From a virus: 64,000 bases of DNA. This document shows positions 1-40,562 of the stretch, one piece after another. The position numbers and the translations under genes were made by a program. The stretch lies in the IMG/VR virus record IMGVR_UViG_3300002835_007523, positions 35,094-99,093 of that record; one strand, 5' to 3'. The notes under the pieces were generated by a model. The model saw only the letters and a list, made by a program, of their open reading frames with translations, did not search any database and was not told the DNA's origin. Position 1 is the stretch's first letter; the number at the start of each line of letters is the position of its first letter.

Positions 1-25
1 TCGGCTCTGAGATTTAGGGGCTACT

Positions 26-595
26 GTGGCTATAACTAATAATGGCCAGCCTCAAGGCCCAATACAATTTACAGACGCTGCCTCCGGAGCACGAGTATTT
101 ATTGGAGGCACAACTCCAACAACTCCTGCCCCAGGAGATATCTGGATAGATTCTGATGTACAGAATAATGCTGGAAAAAACACTATATCTGAAACCACAT
201 TATCAACAGCCTCTGTGTCTCTTACAGTCCCAAACTCTTATAAAGACGTATGCCTAGTACTAAAAAACGTACAGCTATCTACAAACGGAGACATACTTGT
301 CAGATTAAATGCTGACTCTACCGGAGCCAACTATCTTGGCGGATCAGCTCTACACACAATTAGTTCTGTAAAAGCTGGCGGTAACAACCTTATAGTAATA
401 ACCATACAGGAGAGCCAGGCACTTACTCCTAAATTTTCAAGAATAGAGGGAGTATACGTAAACTCCTCTAATGCTTTAGCCTCTGTAACTGCTGCAGGTG
501 GGTATAGTCAAACTACCGCATTAACAACAATTAATTTAGCAACCTCAACCGGCACCTTTGCTGGCGGAACTGCAACCGTATATGGAGTTAACTAA
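26..595 (+). CDS. tail-fibre-associated/minor tail protein
   Basis: 189 aa; TTPTTPAPGDIWID motif typical of phage fibre proteins; Thr/Gly/Ser-rich beta character; upstream of tail module. Confidence 0.6.
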   Translation: MAITNNGQPQGPIQFTDAASGARVFIGGTTPTTPAPGDIWIDSDVQNNAGKNTISETTLSTASVSLTVPNSYKDVCLVLKNVQLSTNGDILVRLNADSTGANYLGGSALHTISSVKAGGNNLIVITIQESQALTPKFSRIEGVYVNSSNALASVTAAGGYSQTTALTTINLATSTGTFAGGTATVYGVN

Positions 596-840: not shown

Positions 841-2508
841 ATGCCAGGTTCTATTAAAAATGGCGGTATCTGGAGATCCGCAACCGGTCTATACATAAAA
901 GTAGGCGGTACTTGGCGTACCGTCACTTCAGCGTATGTAAAGGTTGGCGGACAATGGAAGCAGTGGTTTGCTTCTAAAATTCAAGACGCATTTAATAGGA
1001 CATCAACCGCTGCTGGTTTAGGCACTGCAGATAGCGGACAGGCTTGGAATGCTACTTCAGGAAACTGGCGCATTAACGGCTCTAATCAAGCACAGAGCGA
1101 TGATTCAGCAAGCAATTATCCAATAGTCTCTGCAAATCTTGGAAACACCGACGTAAAAGTTCAAGCGGATGTATCAGGTGGAGTTGGTCCAGCATTTTGG
1201 GTAAGCAGCGCCGGATCATGGTGGGCTGCAGTCCCTCGTTACACTACCGTTACAACAAACTCTACATCTATAGTATGTGATCAAAACTTGGCATCATGTA
1301 ACGGATCTGGATGTAGTCCTTCAGGAAGTTGTTGCTCAGGAGTATCTGAAAGCTCCTCCAGCAACTGCAATGGTGGGTACGTACAATGTTCAAACTCTTC
1401 ATGCAGCGACTATCCAAATAGATGTGCAGGACCTTTTAGCAGCACAAGCGGTGGCGGACAAACCTGTAATGCTGGTTGCAGTTCAAATCAAAGCGGATGT
1501 CCTGCTGGAAGTTGTTCGTGTTCTTCCTCTACTTCTGGTGGAACCCAATCCTGTACTGGTGGAAAAACAGACGTATTTCAAGGCTCTAACTGCTCTAGTC
1601 TTGGTGGAAACTGTGGTTCTGGGCCGTTTACTGAAACGGTAAATAGCAGCTATTGCGGTGGAAACGCTTGCTATGGAAGCGACTTTATGACTGCTCTTAC
1701 AGCACCAGGTTGCGGTCTTCCTGTCGATAACGGAAGTTACCAATGTTCTGGTGGACAAGTATACGGATCATTTAATGGACAGCCATTTGGATGCTATACA
1801 TATAGCTCTGGTGGAACTCAATATCAAGTAAATGATGGAGGAACCTGTTCAACTTTAGGGTCTGGTTGGTCACAAGTAGGGTGTTCAAACTGCGCTGGTA
1901 TGGGCCCTTGCGGTACTGGAGGATTTGTTTGCTGCTCTAAAAGTGGAACAGCCGGGTATACCTACGTTGGCCCAGGAACATATGTAACTAACTACTGTAA
2001 GGGAACTGGAGAAGTCCCATTTAGTTATACAAACTACTATTGTTATACTGCTCTTGTCGGCAGCCCATCAGTTACTACCTATAACTACTGTACGGGATAT
2101 ACTCAGAACCCAGTAGTAACCACGTACTATGCATATACTTCTTCTACAACAACAATTACTCGCTCATGCTATACGGGTACTAGAACTATTTCAAATCCAA
2201 TTACTAATTATAAGACTGAGTTAGTGCTACTAAGCTCTGTCTCTGGCTCTGTAGTTAGCTCAGCATCATCTACAATCTCTGATAATACCTCTGGGTTTAC
2301 AACTGTAGGGTCAGTGTACGTACAGACTGGAGGAAATGCCATATCTGCATATGCGTATTCCTCAGCAAACCTTGGTGGAAGCCAACTTGGCGCCACCCTT
2401 ACCCACACAGCCTCAAACCCTACTAAGGGAACTTCTGTTGGTATAATTAAGACGCCATCTACGGGAAGTCAAGGCTCTACAGCCGATAACTTCTTAGCCA
2501 CTATATAG
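841..2508 (+). CDS. cysteine-rich putative receptor-binding/tail fibre protein
   Basis: N-terminal YIKVGGTWR..YVKVGGQWK fibre motif; DAFNR..LGTADSGQAW lectin-like segment; central region with 32 Cys. Confidence 0.65.
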   Translation: MPGSIKNGGIWRSATGLYIKVGGTWRTVTSAYVKVGGQWKQWFASKIQDAFNRTSTAAGLGTADSGQAWNATSGNWRINGSNQAQSDDSASNYPIVSANLGNTDVKVQADVSGGVGPAFWVSSAGSWWAAVPRYTTVTTNSTSIVCDQNLASCNGSGCSPSGSCCSGVSESSSSNCNGGYVQCSNSSCSDYPNRCAGPFSSTSGGGQTCNAGCSSNQSGCPAGSCSCSSSTSGGTQSCTGGKTDVFQGSNCSSLGGNCGSGPFTETVNSSYCGGNACYGSDFMTALTAPGCGLPVDNGSYQCSGGQVYGSFNGQPFGCYTYSSGGTQYQVNDGGTCSTLGSGWSQVGCSNCAGMGPCGTGGFVCCSKSGTAGYTYVGPGTYVTNYCKGTGEVPFSYTNYYCYTALVGSPSVTTYNYCTGYTQNPVVTTYYAYTSSTTTITRSCYTGTRTISNPITNYKTELVLLSSVSGSVVSSASSTISDNTSGFTTVGSVYVQTGGNAISAYAYSSANLGGSQLGATLTHTASNPTKGTSVGIIKTPSTGSQGSTADNFLATI

Positions 2509-5618: not shown

Positions 5619-7184
5619 ATGGCTACATACAGTAGACCAGGCGTGTTTATTCAAGAAGTGGAGCTTCCACAAGCTATTGAGCTTGGCGAAGGCGGTTCTG
5701 CTATTGGAGCTTTTGTTGGCGCTCTAAATCAGGGTCCAACATCTGCACCGGTACTAGTAAGCTCTTGGTCAGAATTTACCAAGACTTTTGGTTCATTGAA
5801 TGACGCTTACCCAACAACCTGGGCTGCCTACAATTTCTTTGCAAATGGCGGCCGTCAACTATACGTTAAGAGAATTACTGGAAGCGGTGCTGCGGCAGCG
5901 AATGTAACTCTTACAGATAGAGCTCAAACCCCTCAAGACACATTAACTCTTACAGCAAAAAGTGCTGGTACCTGGGCAAATAGCCTTGCAGTATCTGTAA
6001 CTGCTGCTGGAACAGATACTCGCTTTAACCTAACTGTGTACGGTGCTCCTACAATTTCTGGAGTTGCAACATCTAATGTTCTTGAAACCTTCACAGATCT
6101 AAGCATGGATTCAACAGATCCTCGTTACGCAGTTACAGCAATCAATGCAGACTCAGCATATCTAGTAGCGGTAGATGAGCAATCACCTACAGTAGCACCA
6201 GATGATATGCCAGATATTTCTGGACTCGTTGCTTTAGCTGGTGGTTCAAACGGCTCTCAACCAGCCCTAAACGACTACACTTCAGGTCTAAACTCTTTAG
6301 ATCCAATTACTAGTCCACTAGTTATTAATATCCCTGCAGCTGCATATGTGTATACCACTTCAGGTACTGGTGCAGAAAGAACATTCTCACTAGATCTTAG
6401 TGCTGCTGCGGTAGCTTACGCACAAGGTCGTGGAGATGCATTTGCTGTTGTAGATCTTCCTCAAGGCCTAACTGTTGCTGAAGCAAAAACTTACGCATCA
6501 GACCTTAAGGCTAAGTACGCTGCTAACTCTGATGGTGGAGTTGCTGCAATGTACTACCCATGGGTACAGATTCCAGATTCACTAAAGGCATCCAGATCTG
6601 CACTTCGTAATCAAGCTCCTGGAGCAATTATGGTTGGACAGTATCTAGCTACAGATGCATCTAAGGGTGTATTTAAAACTCCAGCTGGATTTACAACTCG
6701 CCTAGCGCTTGCAGTTAATACTCAAAGACTGTTGACAAATGCTGAGCTAGATGCACTAAACACTGGAACTGAACCAATAAACGCTATTCGTCAGGTTCCT
6801 GGCGCTGGCATTGTTGTTATGGGCGGTCGTACCATGAACAATACTACAAACGACCGATACATCAACATCCGTCGTTCTCTTATCTACATCAAGAAAGAGC
6901 TTGAAGATCGAAGCTCTTTTGCAGTGTTTGAGAACAACGATTCAATTTTGTGGAACAGACTATCTGTGGCCCTATCTACGTTCCTACGTGGTTACTGGCA
7001 GCAAGGCGGTCTGCGTGGGGCTAGCCCTCAACAGGCTTTCTATGTAAAAGTAGATGCTACTACCACATCATTTGCAGACATACAGAACGGCCGAGTTAAC
7101 ATTGAGGTGGGAGTTGCGCTGCAATACCCATCTGAGTTCATTGTTATCAAGCTTGGTCAAATTACCGGAAACGCCACTGCGTAA
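5619..7184 (+). CDS. contractile tail sheath protein
   Basis: YSRPGVFIQE start, FFANGG, RYINIRR, VFENND, PSEFIVIKL. Confidence 0.95.
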   Translation: MATYSRPGVFIQEVELPQAIELGEGGSAIGAFVGALNQGPTSAPVLVSSWSEFTKTFGSLNDAYPTTWAAYNFFANGGRQLYVKRITGSGAAAANVTLTDRAQTPQDTLTLTAKSAGTWANSLAVSVTAAGTDTRFNLTVYGAPTISGVATSNVLETFTDLSMDSTDPRYAVTAINADSAYLVAVDEQSPTVAPDDMPDISGLVALAGGSNGSQPALNDYTSGLNSLDPITSPLVINIPAAAYVYTTSGTGAERTFSLDLSAAAVAYAQGRGDAFAVVDLPQGLTVAEAKTYASDLKAKYAANSDGGVAAMYYPWVQIPDSLKASRSALRNQAPGAIMVGQYLATDASKGVFKTPAGFTTRLALAVNTQRLLTNAELDALNTGTEPINAIRQVPGAGIVVMGGRTMNNTTNDRYINIRRSLIYIKKELEDRSSFAVFENNDSILWNRLSVALSTFLRGYWQQGGLRGASPQQAFYVKVDATTTSFADIQNGRVNIEVGVALQYPSEFIVIKLGQITGNATA

Positions 7185-7839: not shown

Positions 7840-8676
7840 GTGAACTACATGACTACAGAAACGACAATTGCTGCGGCAGATAACCCTGGTCTTGCTAATA
7901 AGCTTGCATCAGAAGCTGTTGCATTAGCAGAACAAGAAAAAGCAGCTACACCGGTAAGGGCTGAGATTAGAAACCCAGCCAATCCGATAGTGGAGCTAGC
8001 AGTTGGATTAGATGTTCCATTTGAAGAGCGTATAACGACAGCCGAAATACGTGAGCTTAATGGAGCAGATGAAGAAGCTATTGCACGTCTAAATGACCCT
8101 GCAAAAGCCTTAATGTTAATCCTAGAGCGTGCTGTAGTCAAGTTGGGAAATAAACCCACTGAAAAAGACCTACTTGACGCGTTGCTGGCAGGAGATAGAG
8201 AACTTCTCCTGCTAGCAATTCGCAAGTTAACCTTTGGAAATGAAGTTAACCTAGAAGGAAACATTTGTCAGGCATGTGTTGAACCTCAAAAGATTCAAAT
8301 AGACCTAGATACAGATGTAGAAGTAAAAAAACTTAATATAGAAGATGTCGAGTTTACTGTGCCATGTAAGGCTGGAGAAGTTCGAGTAAAGCTTCCTACA
8401 GGATTTACACAAAAAGCATTAGTAGCCTCTACTAACAAGACTGCAGCTGAATTGGACTCCGTTGTATTAAAAAACTGCATCCTTAGTATTAATGATAAGC
8501 CCTTGTTAAATCAATCAGAGGTACTAAGGCTTAGCATTAAAGATAGACGTGACATTCTTAAAGAGATCTCTAATCGTAACCCTGGACCACAACTTAGTGA
8601 AATAAGTAAACCTTGCCCAAACTGCGGCCAGGAGGTGTCGCTACCGCTAACCCTAGCGGATTTGTTTCAGGAATGA
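7840..8676 (+). CDS. tail/baseplate-hub assembly chaperone (T4 gp26-like)
   Basis: IRELNGADEE, GDRELLLLAIR, two CxxC; between tube and tape measure. Confidence 0.75.
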   Translation: MNYMTTETTIAAADNPGLANKLASEAVALAEQEKAATPVRAEIRNPANPIVELAVGLDVPFEERITTAEIRELNGADEEAIARLNDPAKALMLILERAVVKLGNKPTEKDLLDALLAGDRELLLLAIRKLTFGNEVNLEGNICQACVEPQKIQIDLDTDVEVKKLNIEDVEFTVPCKAGEVRVKLPTGFTQKALVASTNKTAAELDSVVLKNCILSINDKPLLNQSEVLRLSIKDRRDILKEISNRNPGPQLSEISKPCPNCGQEVSLPLTLADLFQE

Positions 8677-40311: not shown

Positions 40312-40562
40312 GCAAAGAGCTTTGGTATTTTTATGCAGACTGGTGTCCTTATTGCCAAAAACAAAAGCCAATTATGGAAGAGTACACTAAGTCTAATCCT
40401 GATGTAGAGGTTATTTGGCTTAACGAAGCTAGTGAAAAAGATGCTGTAGAGTTAAACGGAATAAGCGGATATCCAACCTTCATACCATTTAAAAATGGAG
40501 TTCCTTTAGAACGAGTAAACGGAGTTCAAGAAAAGGTTAAGCTAGAGGCTATATTTGCATGA
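40308..40562 (+). CDS. thioredoxin
   Basis: FYADWCPYC, cis-Pro YPTF, FKNG. Confidence 0.9.
   Translation: MSKELWYFYADWCPYCQKQKPIMEEYTKSNPDVEVIWLNEASEKDAVELNGISGYPTFIPFKNGVPLERVNGVQEKVKLEAIFA

Follow-up and report, generated by a model that had tools for sequence, protein, structure and literature searches.

The gene analyzed here occupies nt 841 to 2508 of the window, i.e., the 64,000-nucleotide stretch of viral DNA that was analyzed, and its open reading frame translates into a protein of 555 amino acids (aa) followed by a stop codon. It belongs to the tail module of a 99-kb phage genome, the whole of which was covered, and is the single copy of its family there. Upstream lie two fiber-like genes (nt 26 to 595 and 595 to 831), and the tail sheath gene (nt 5619 to 7184; phrog_23, E = 2e-44) is found ~3 kb downstream. 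This position between fiber genes and sheath was kept in all related loci examined, and the location in the tail module beside fiber/baseplate genes is that of a tail fiber or receptor-binding protein. Judged from sequence, the gene product probably sits distally in the tail of an uncultured myovirus with a ~99-kb genome and acts as a receptor-binding protein. Two small genes follow, namely, one for a 79-aa Cys-motif protein of the DUF6171 family (nt 2517 to 2756; Pfam PF19668, E = 7e-7) and one for a 75-aa protein without a family match (nt 2756 to 2983), which is coupled to the DUF6171 gene and conserved with it downstream of the fiber gene. All of the genes and features to which we assign coordinates from the 555-aa gene to the 75-aa gene lie on the plus strand.

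The N-terminal ~45 aa (nt 841 to 975) consist of short beta-hairpin repeats, as indicated by PHROG and AF2 analysis: PHROGs 25859 and 36019, neither of which has an assigned function, match aa 4 to 46, and AF2 predicts strands with pLDDT values of 77 to 90. This part is absent from some relatives and replaced by longer N-terminal parts in others, and it is probably the virion-attachment part. Database searches with the 555-aa protein returned no match in INPHARED (by DNA or by protein), no sequence match in the PDB, no usable match in the ESM Atlas, and a sub-threshold DUF7937 match alone in Pfam. The sole match among 185,579 species genomes was located on a 12-kb contig of a Bacteroidetes MAG. 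Relatives (443 cluster representatives at E <= 1e-3) come almost exclusively from metagenomic phage contigs. Family members in UniProt/BFVD (e.g., A0A6J5KM36 and A0A6J5RDN1; Foldseek E 2e-20 to 3e-10) are listed under "uncultured Caudovirales phage"; none is annotated or studied, and their inserts vary in module type, number, and tip. A JGI label, "TraN," on relative P0054 was taken as an artefact of Cys richness.

A lectin-like frame and its cysteine-rich insertion

The preliminary description had proposed that a lectin-like frame surrounds a Cys-rich insertion. The AF2 model bears this out, in that aa 46 to 145 (nt 976 to 1275; pLDDT >90) and aa 444 to 555 (nt 2170 to 2505; pLDDT 95 to 98) together form one ConA-like lectin/carbohydrate-binding module (CBM) beta-sandwich when analyzed by VIA-align. 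The best frame match was CBM66 4b1m (Z 17.0, rmsd 2.5 A, 153 aa), and the frame matches span model residues 52 to 555. Further matches with Z values of 10 to 16 comprised many lectins, GH43 C-terminal domains, and GH16 enzymes; the two-sheet jelly-roll of ~150 to 200 residues that characterizes the ConA-like lectin/glucanase (CBM66-like) fold was found in the frame alone. Phage receptor-binding domains ranked among the top matches; VIA-align paired the frame with the receptor-binding domain of TM4 gp23 (9n6a, Z 14.8), the baseplate protein of mycobacteriophage Douge (8zdo, Z 14.3), and the CBM2 of phage J-1 Dit (5ly8, Z 11.9), with 169 to 179 residues aligned and the frame alone covered. These three proteins share frame fold and tail location with the 555-aa protein, but they have no counterpart of its 298-aa Cys-rich insertion and no detectable sequence similarity to it. 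Because the N- and C-terminal halves form one sandwich, the chain must come back to the point at which it exits the frame.

Within the insertion (aa 146 to 443; nt 1276 to 2169), AF2 was confident at the base of the stalk (aa 146 to 205 and 420 to 445) and in the distal core, and its confidence fell below 50 at aa 211 to 264 of the outbound arm and aa 397 to 420 of the return arm. These two stretches are presumed partners, and strands are predicted in the return arm. In a model of the insert only, pLDDT reached 91 to 96 for aa 270 to 319, and the VIA match ranges on that model were nested (3 to 310, 64 to 300, 66 to 284, 95 to 267, and 186 to 230). No structural neighbor of the insert-only model was found among 48,161 chains (best Z 3.3), and Foldseek searches of the PDB yielded nothing significant for either the full or the insert-only model. 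Since the insert has no structural neighbor in the PDB, solving its structure by experiment would probably establish a new class of fold.

All 32 Cys residues were confirmed from the translation to lie within the insertion, as had been described, and the frame is Cys-free (0 Cys in aa 1 to 145 and 0 in aa 444 to 555). They occupy positions 146, 153, 158, 164, 165, 176, 183, 188, 195, 209, 213, 220, 225, 227, 238, 251, 258, 272, 277, 291, 302, 318, 336, 348, 351, 357, 364, 365, 386, 401, 417, and 443, in a sequence enriched in Gly, Ser, Thr, Cys, and Tyr. We also reproduced the earlier counts of 5, 4, 5, 3, 3, and 2 Cys in the outbound segments, 6 in the tip, and 0, 1, 1, 1, 0, and 1 in the return motifs (tip to base), in which odd and even follow the mirror of the outbound order. 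Within this single protein, mirrored parity is weak evidence (~1 in 15, with four Cys-bearing segments among six); the match gains significance from the family, where Cys totals are even in 170/188 complete relatives (p = 3e-32).

Module boundaries had originally been drawn by eye. Those of modules 1 to 3 proved to be non-arbitrary, as they coincide with the tandem repeat unit of relatives, a loop closed by Cys residues with a CC doublet at its end and a Gly/Ser linker behind it, which is plain in P0010, P0017, and P0006. By homology to this repeat, the proximal outbound modules 1 to 3 (nt 1276 to 1551; 5, 4, and 5 Cys) span aa 146 to 175, 176 to 208, and 209 to 237. Modules 4 to 6 (nt 1552 to 1845; 3, 3, and 2 Cys; aa 238 to 271, 272 to 301, and 302 to 335) were delimited by conservation and AF2 and constitute a distal core, a conserved block kept in P0005-P0010 and P0006. 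Comparison with relatives places the apical 6-Cys knob at aa 336 to 371 (nt 1846 to 1953), and the Cys parse together with AF2 places the return arm, with its six short Thr/Tyr strands and residues C386, C401, C417, A431, and C443, at aa 372 to 443 (nt 1954 to 2169). Automatic gap-based segmentation was dropped because gaps within modules exceed those between modules; repeat homology and regex counts were used, and the regexes under-count degenerate units (e.g., in P0109 and L015).

Cysteine parity and copy numbers of the two arms

In complete family members, 98% of the Cys residues sit inside the insertion, and of the even totals, 86 are divisible by four (0 mod 4) and 84 are not (2 mod 4). 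Together with the parity itself, this split favors disulfides over Cys4 metal sites. We considered whether the Cys residues might bind metal (as Zn-Cys4, Fe-S, or metallothionein-like clusters) and form no disulfides. Phage tails assemble in the reducing cytoplasm, where this protein would be folded, and no Erv1/Alr sulfhydryl oxidase or DsbA-like gene was found in the genome, which has only one thioredoxin; CxC, CC, and CxxC spacings in the insert likewise suit metal ligation. However, metal-thiolate domains use three or four Cys per site and do not require the total to be even, whereas 90% of the members have even totals, among which those divisible by four are not favored, as predicted for pairs and not for Cys3/Cys4 sites. 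Moreover, Cys gains and losses within modules come two at a time (3 to 5), one loss is coupled across the arms (see below), the insert is rich in aromatics and beta-strands, unlike metallothioneins, and functional disulfides are present in the virion of the freshwater myophage Pam3 (PMC9942802). Metal binding was rejected as the main reading on the basis of parity, and we regard it as highly improbable.

If the chain runs out and back, outbound modules and return segments should be gained or lost in pairs, as the preliminary description had anticipated. We found equal copy numbers for four layer types, over a range of 1 to 11 layers, with one exception that is a deletion copy. More specifically, hand parsing of odd-Cys outbound versus odd-Cys return units (the latter carrying a single Cys, except for one 3-Cys unit in P0014) gave 2/2 in P0050; 3/3 in P0043 and P0049; 4/4 in P0001; 6/6 in P0011, P0013, P0015, and P0018; 7/7 in P0005, P0010, P0014, and P0017; and 8/8 in P0006, P0030, L004, L008, and L041. 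Similarly, four-Cys modules versus Cys-less returns numbered 1/1, 2/2 (three proteins), 3/3 (two proteins), and 4/4, and L015 has 11 four-Cys modules versus 10 to 11 Cys-less return strands. A 2-Cys/2-Cys layer type occurred at 2/2 and 3/3. Blind regex counts of outbound versus return units were correlated (rho 0.92, n = 57; rho 0.80, n = 12; not phylogeny-corrected), with L007 at 5 to 6 versus 7. A mismatch was observed in P0032 (6 odd modules versus 8 returns), which matches L041 at 100% identity elsewhere but lacks exactly two of its repeats (a 54-aa deletion); it was rejected as a true counter-example, being an exact two-repeat deletion of an intact twin.

The order of the units is mirrored as well. 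In the distant relatives P0050 and L015, modules with an even number of Cys are opposed, in mirrored order, by return strands that have none, and P0050 carries its odd modules as well as its Cys-bearing returns at the frame-proximal end of the arms. Swapped-arm forms (P0024, P0031, P0033, and L007) start with two single-Cys strands and end with two CC modules. Co-variation of Cys pairs, another expectation of the nested arrangement, was found in the window's own clade: the second return position, counting from the base, holds Cys in 52/56 sequences and Ala solely in P0001, P0003, and P0004, and the same three proteins carry C in place of the CC doublet of module 2, which is retained in 52/56 relatives. 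Loss of one Cys of the module 2 doublet and loss of the mirrored return Cys are thus confined to the same clade, and this coupled loss represents a single evolutionary event.

Alternatively, the insert could consist of small cystine-knot-like domains, strung or clumped together but independent of one another, whose Cys pair only locally and sequentially; no ladder would then connect the arms, and the Thr/Tyr region would serve as a mere linker. AF2 is indeed unconfident mid-way along both arms, and overall parity by itself requires just one inter-arm bond. Yet the canonical outbound modules all have an odd number of Cys and the canonical returns have one, in equal numbers over 2 to 8 copies, and even modules are paired one to one with Cys-less returns in up to 11 copies. 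Local pairing also gives no reason for the swapped-arm forms or for the coupled loss at module 2 and the second return position, and there is little chance that it describes the insert. The matched copy numbers of the arms, the coupled Cys loss, and the fold of the lectin frame instead support the core of the original proposal, i.e., an out-and-back antiparallel stalk of stapled layers.

The apical knob and its probable role in host recognition

The knob contains Cys residues 336, 348, 351, 357, 364, and 365. The same knob type caps six different stalk types, and among close relatives the apex may carry it or lack it. Over 8,400 nt, the window and its near-clonal twin L001 show 126 differences, of which 82 fall within nt 1801 to 2000, i.e., in the knob, where they include indels and wholesale replacement; the neighboring proteins of the twin are all 100% identical to those of the window. 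Length variability, proposed from the single sequence, and an exchangeable tip are confirmed in the family by the 1 to 11 layers, the apex swaps, and the divergent knob of L001. Variation driven by a diversity-generating retroelement (DGR), which needs a reverse transcriptase and a template repeat and leaves adenine-specific changes, was rejected because the complete 99-kb genome encodes no reverse transcriptase (no RVT_1 match). The tip had been suggested to be knottin-like, a fold in which six Cys are linked I-IV, II-V, and III-VI to form a knot. The only structural echo of the knob was a non-significant similarity of aa 325 to 369 (insert-only residues 186 to 230) to plant defensins (Z 2.0 to 2.4).

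Since variation is focused on the knob and tips are swapped, the pattern is that expected of a specificity determinant, and the knob is most likely an exchangeable cassette that sets host specificity, as far as sequence comparison can indicate. It is conceivable that the nested stalk is real without being a receptor binder; the frame, with a CBM fold that phage receptor-binding domains also have, would then bind a host glycan and the stalk would act as a spacer, strut, stabilizer, or decoy, or the protein would not be part of the virion, the N-terminal PHROGs carrying no known function. Against this stand the concentration of near-clonal variation in the knob and not in the frame (82/126), the swapping of tips among stalk types, and the position of the gene between fiber genes and sheath in all loci examined, so that we consider this reading unlikely.

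Proposed architecture and relation to known systems

We propose, with a probability of roughly 0.65, that the protein is a receptor-binding tail protein in which a disulfide-laddered hairpin stalk with an exchangeable knob is mounted on a lectin frame. An N-terminal anchor would lead into the ConA-like sandwich, one loop of which would be replaced by the 298-aa insertion, which would leave the frame and return to it as a long hairpin stalk made up of layers. Every layer would comprise an outbound module and one short Thr/Tyr return strand. The outbound module would form a disulfide-closed loop with an optional second internal disulfide and a CC doublet at its end, and the doublet's spare Cys would form a staple with the one Cys in the return strand that mirrors the module. 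Modules without a spare Cys would face Cys-less strands, as module 2 would face Ala431 here. The conserved distal core and the 6-Cys knob would form the apex, and the number of stalk layers (1 to 11 in the family) would set the reach. We infer S-S bonds, their connectivity, and receptor binding on this basis.

Trimeric fibers, spikes, and loop variation on fixed folds are the usual explanation for how phages recognize their hosts, and the large unannotated family described here would represent a different solution, namely, a lectin domain with an extensible Cys-stapled stalk and an exchangeable tip. Literature searches retrieved no description of such a phage protein; one match, to CASP16, was irrelevant. 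The stalk-and-knob architecture has not been described for phages, whereas the fold of the lectin frame is already known in phage receptor-binding domains. A close likeness is the bovine ultralong CDR-H3, an insertion in the CDR3 loop of an immunoglobulin VH domain, in which a two-stranded stalk on a beta-sandwich carries a disulfide-rich binding knob of variable sequence with an always even number of Cys. Both have a long stalk that emerges from a beta-sandwich and bears a small Cys-rich knob, but this is analogy only and not homology: the phage frame is a ConA-like lectin and not an Ig V domain, and the phage stalk is itself built of repeated stapled layers in 1 to 11 copies. The single bovine antibody match (6e9i) was non-significant (Foldseek E 3.4). 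Rods of stacked disulfide-pinned modules are also known from the granulin hairpin stack, the Cys-rich domains of TNF receptors, and the beetle antifreeze beta-helix. These are single-pass structures; in the phage protein, one and the same chain would supply both the outbound module and the mirrored return strand that are joined in each layer. Foldseek and VIA-align searches of the insert gave no structural match to disulfide-ladder repeat proteins. Gly-rich-motif adhesins at fiber tips vary in their layering, with 12 motifs in four layers versus 10 motifs in three layers (PMC9942802). S16 gp38 and Pam3 gp24 resemble the present family in their variable number of layered repeat motifs (Gly-rich there) and in their hypervariable host-determining parts; in contrast, their lattices are neither held by disulfides nor arranged as out-and-back mirrored hairpins, and they show no sequence or fold match to the protein studied here.

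A recombinant knob could be used as bait, offering a testable route to the hosts of uncultured phages, and for protein engineers the family may provide a natural scaffold, modular and of the stalk-and-knob type, comparable to bovine knob domains. It also raises the question of how 16 to 32 disulfides form in a cytoplasm-assembled protein. Oxidation might take place after lysis, or might be aided by the adjacent small Cys-motif protein. A more far-reaching version, which we offer tentatively and hold to be rather doubtful, is an undescribed display scaffold in the form of a self-mirrored hairpin with a disulfide ladder, whose length is tuned by pairs of modules and return strands, whose knob cassette is swapped between otherwise identical genomes to retarget the host, and whose 16 or more disulfides need the DUF6171 protein. 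The latter is a candidate assembly/folding partner of the 555-aa protein. A DUF6171 homologue lies downstream of the fiber gene in 75/79 related IMG/VR loci, directly adjacent in most, and the remaining four loci end before the position concerned. A fiber-specific partnership is half supported by these gene neighborhoods, as the DUF6171 family also occurs away from fibers in Stenotrophomonas and Synechococcus phages.

Cysteine layout and lectin-like frame

The cysteine-rich fibre gene (841-2508, + strand, 555 aa) belongs to an IMG/VR virus record of 99,093 bp, judged complete by CheckV, of which the window is the final 64 kb. By script count, all 32 Cys of its product, P0001, fall within aa 146-443 (nt 1276-2169) and none in the flanks (aa 1-145 or 444-555), and the segment counts of the preliminary description were reproduced: the outbound modules hold 5, 4, 5, 3, 3, and 2 Cys, the tip holds 6, and the return strands hold 0, 1, 1, 1, 0, and 1 along the chain from tip to base, in an order mirroring that of the outbound modules.

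In a full-length AF2 model built from a 146-sequence alignment (mean pLDDT 80.8; frame, >90), VIA-align superposed aa 52..555, i.e., both frame halves together, on ConA-like lectin/CBM beta-sandwiches, including CBM66 4b1m (Z 17.0, rmsd 2.5 Å, 153 aa), the galactocerebrosidase lectin domain (Z 16.3), the receptor-binding domain of mycobacteriophage TM4 gp23 (Z 14.8), a Douge baseplate protein (Z 14.3), and phage J-1 Dit CBM2 (Z 11.9). The frame described earlier as lectin-like is thus real, and through it the protein is tied to phage receptor-binding domains of lectin fold. Since the 298-aa Cys-rich stretch is inserted into one domain, the chain must come back to its exit point.

The insert alone had no structural neighbour in Foldseek and, against 48,161 chains in VIA-align, reached a best Z of 3.3, with no chain at Z ≥5. 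The best echoes of the knob were plant defensins, whose Z scores of 2.0 to 2.4 are not significant, so that the term "knottin-like" is unsupported. The comparison with bovine ultralong CDR-H3 holds as a functional analogy, both being a stalk with a variable disulfide knob on a beta-sandwich, but not as kinship, and in the phage protein the stalk would itself consist of stapled repeats arranged as a ladder. We class P0001 as a putative receptor-binding protein, a kind already known from phages, whose insertion is structurally novel.

Matched and mirrored arms of the proposed stalk

In relatives, the outbound unit is a Cys-closed loop that terminates in a CC doublet (3 Cys; 5 in a variant with two additional Cys within the loop) followed by a Gly/Ser linker, and the return unit is a Thr/Tyr strand of 12 to 15 aa with one Cys. 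When arms were parsed by repeat homology, the numbers of odd-Cys outbound and odd-Cys return units were equal in all proteins tabulated: 2/2 (P0050), 3/3 (P0043, P0049), 4/4 (P0001), 6/6 (P0011, P0013, P0018, P0015), 7/7 (P0005, P0010, P0017, P0014), and 8/8 (P0006, P0030, L004, L008, L041). The odd return units each carry one Cys; only P0014 has one with three. In a second layer type, self-contained 4-Cys modules pair 1:1 with Cys-less return strands, i.e., 1/1 (P0107), 2/2 (P0085, P0104, P0124), 3/3 (P0048, P0074), 4/4 (P0109), and 11 versus 10-11 (L015, whose gene at L015:703-3162 encodes an 11-layer stalk with ~11 Cys-less return strands). A third type, with 2 Cys out and 2 back, gave counts of 2/2 (nine proteins) and 3/3 (two proteins). 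Regex counts without hand curation, uncorrected for relatedness, yielded Spearman rho values of 0.92 (n = 57) and 0.80 (n = 12), with 5-6 versus 7 for locus L007. The one clear exception to matched numbers is P0032 (6 versus 8). Since this protein is 100% identical to that of L041 save for a 54-aa gap removing exactly two outbound repeats, we rejected an evolved architecture; its sequence points to repeat collapse or a fresh deletion. Together with L015, the product of the L007 gene (L007:6001-8031) counts among the extremes of the family: its insert of 437 aa contains 64 Cys and is built of 4-Cys outbound layers and CxC return layers.

Order is mirrored as well as number. The outbound arm of P0050 begins with its two odd modules and the return arm ends with its two Cys-bearing strands; even modules and Cys-less strands lie in between. 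Swapped arms occur in P0024, P0031, P0033, L007, and P0034-41, whose insert starts with two single-Cys strands and finishes with two 5-Cys CC modules, around a similar apex. These forms resemble circular permutations in which the Thr/Tyr strands lead and the apex carries the same type of knob. At the second return position from the base, 52/56 sequences of alignment A1 have Cys, and the only ones with Ala are P0001, P0003, and P0004, the very proteins whose module 2 has a single Cys instead of CC. The proposed covariation of Cys pairs is borne out here by one evolutionary event, the coupled loss of both partners that the mirror rule predicts. Between P0001 and P0003, mirrored partners also diverge together (63% for m1 and 46% for r1; 90% for m2 and 92% for r2), a trend no more than suggestive at n = 5.

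Predicted connectivity and cysteine pairing

In the full-length model, the insert base is confident (aa 146-205 with 420-445), whereas pLDDT falls below 50 mid-arm, at aa 211-264 (modules 3-4) and 397-420 (strands with C401 and C417), which are presumed partners. A model of the insert only (aa 140-450, pLDDT 75.8) exceeded 90 across aa 270-319 and 370-389, the distal core, and its small-domain matches covered nested ranges of model residues (3..310, 64..300, 66..284, 95..267, and 186..230), so that in this model outbound pieces adjoin mirrored return pieces. Monomer prediction favours the nested out-and-back stalk proposed earlier.

Among 188 homologues that contain both halves of the frame in full, 98% of Cys fall in the insert and the total (6 to 46 per protein; up to 64 in L007) is even in 170 (binomial p = 3e-32); in several odd-count homologues, the extra Cys lies in the frame. 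Even totals divide into 86 that are 0 mod 4 and 84 that are 2 mod 4. Metal binding at Cys3 or Cys4 sites leaves both the parity and this lack of preference for multiples of four unexplained, whereas pairing, i.e., predicted disulfides as in the preliminary description, accounts for them. Freshwater myophage Pam3 provides a precedent for disulfides in a virion (PMC9942802). In P0001, module 1 would pair C146 with C164 or C165 and C153 with C158, leaving the remaining doublet Cys for C443; module 2 would hold C176-C195 and C183-C188, with no link to Ala431; module 3 would form two internal pairs and one link to C417; modules 4 and 5 would each send one link, to C401 and C386, respectively; module 6 would close through C302-C318; and the knob would contain three internal pairs.

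The 99-kb genome encodes a sole thioredoxin-fold protein (~40320-40553, + strand; PF00085, E = 1.4e-14), and no Erv1/Alr or DsbA-like gene was found in it. The two genes 3' of the fibre gene (2517-2983) encode a DUF6171 Cys-motif protein of 79 aa and a protein of 75 aa, an arrangement found in almost all 79 related IMG/VR loci (L001-L079), directly adjacent in most, and persisting even at ~33% fibre identity. Stenotrophomonas (Moby-like) and Synechococcus phages also encode DUF6171, at sites away from fibre genes, so a dedicated role in folding is no more than possible.

Distribution of the family and exchange of the knob

The phage is a myovirus. Its Cys-rich gene sits 3 kb upstream of the tail sheath gene (5619-7184; phrog_23, E = 2e-44), with genes for the tape measure, the baseplate wedge, and others beyond the sheath. 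Two small fibre-like genes precede the Cys-rich gene, at 26-595 and 595-831 (78 aa, matching a tail-fibre PHROG in the final ~25 residues of the latter only), and are kept together with it in closer loci.

The protein has no Pfam family, no sequence relative in the PDB, and none among 50,697 deposited phage genomes. The family is large in metagenomes, with 60 close clusters and 443 cluster representatives at E ≤1e-3. Only six significant structural relatives were found in BFVD, all "uncharacterized protein [uncultured Caudovirales phage]," and genomes of 185,579 prokaryote species (one each) gave a single match, located on a Bacteroidetes MAG contig of 12 kb. The homologue P0054, which has the same lectin frame, is labelled "conjugal transfer mating pair stabilization protein TraN" by JGI, probably reflecting only its Cys-richness.

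The 6-Cys knob of P0001 recurs on the apex of six different stalk types and is absent from the otherwise similar P0006 and P0010; other relatives carry 4- or 7-Cys tips at this position. In the near-clonal twin L001, the homologue of the 26-595 product, DUF6171, the 196-aa and 204-aa proteins, and the sheath match those of the window at 100% identity, whereas the insert reaches only 87%, with differences at aa ~320-372. Across 8.4 kb, 82/126 nucleotide differences fall in nt 1801-2000. A second cluster (17 differences at 8301-8400) lies in the region of the tail chaperone, immediately ahead of the tape-measure gene, and outside both the two phages differ at ~1 in 300 nt. The genome encodes no reverse transcriptase, so a DGR was ruled out as the source of the knob differences, which instead reflect cassette exchange. 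Such knob-focused variation is the pattern that would be expected of a host-specificity determinant.
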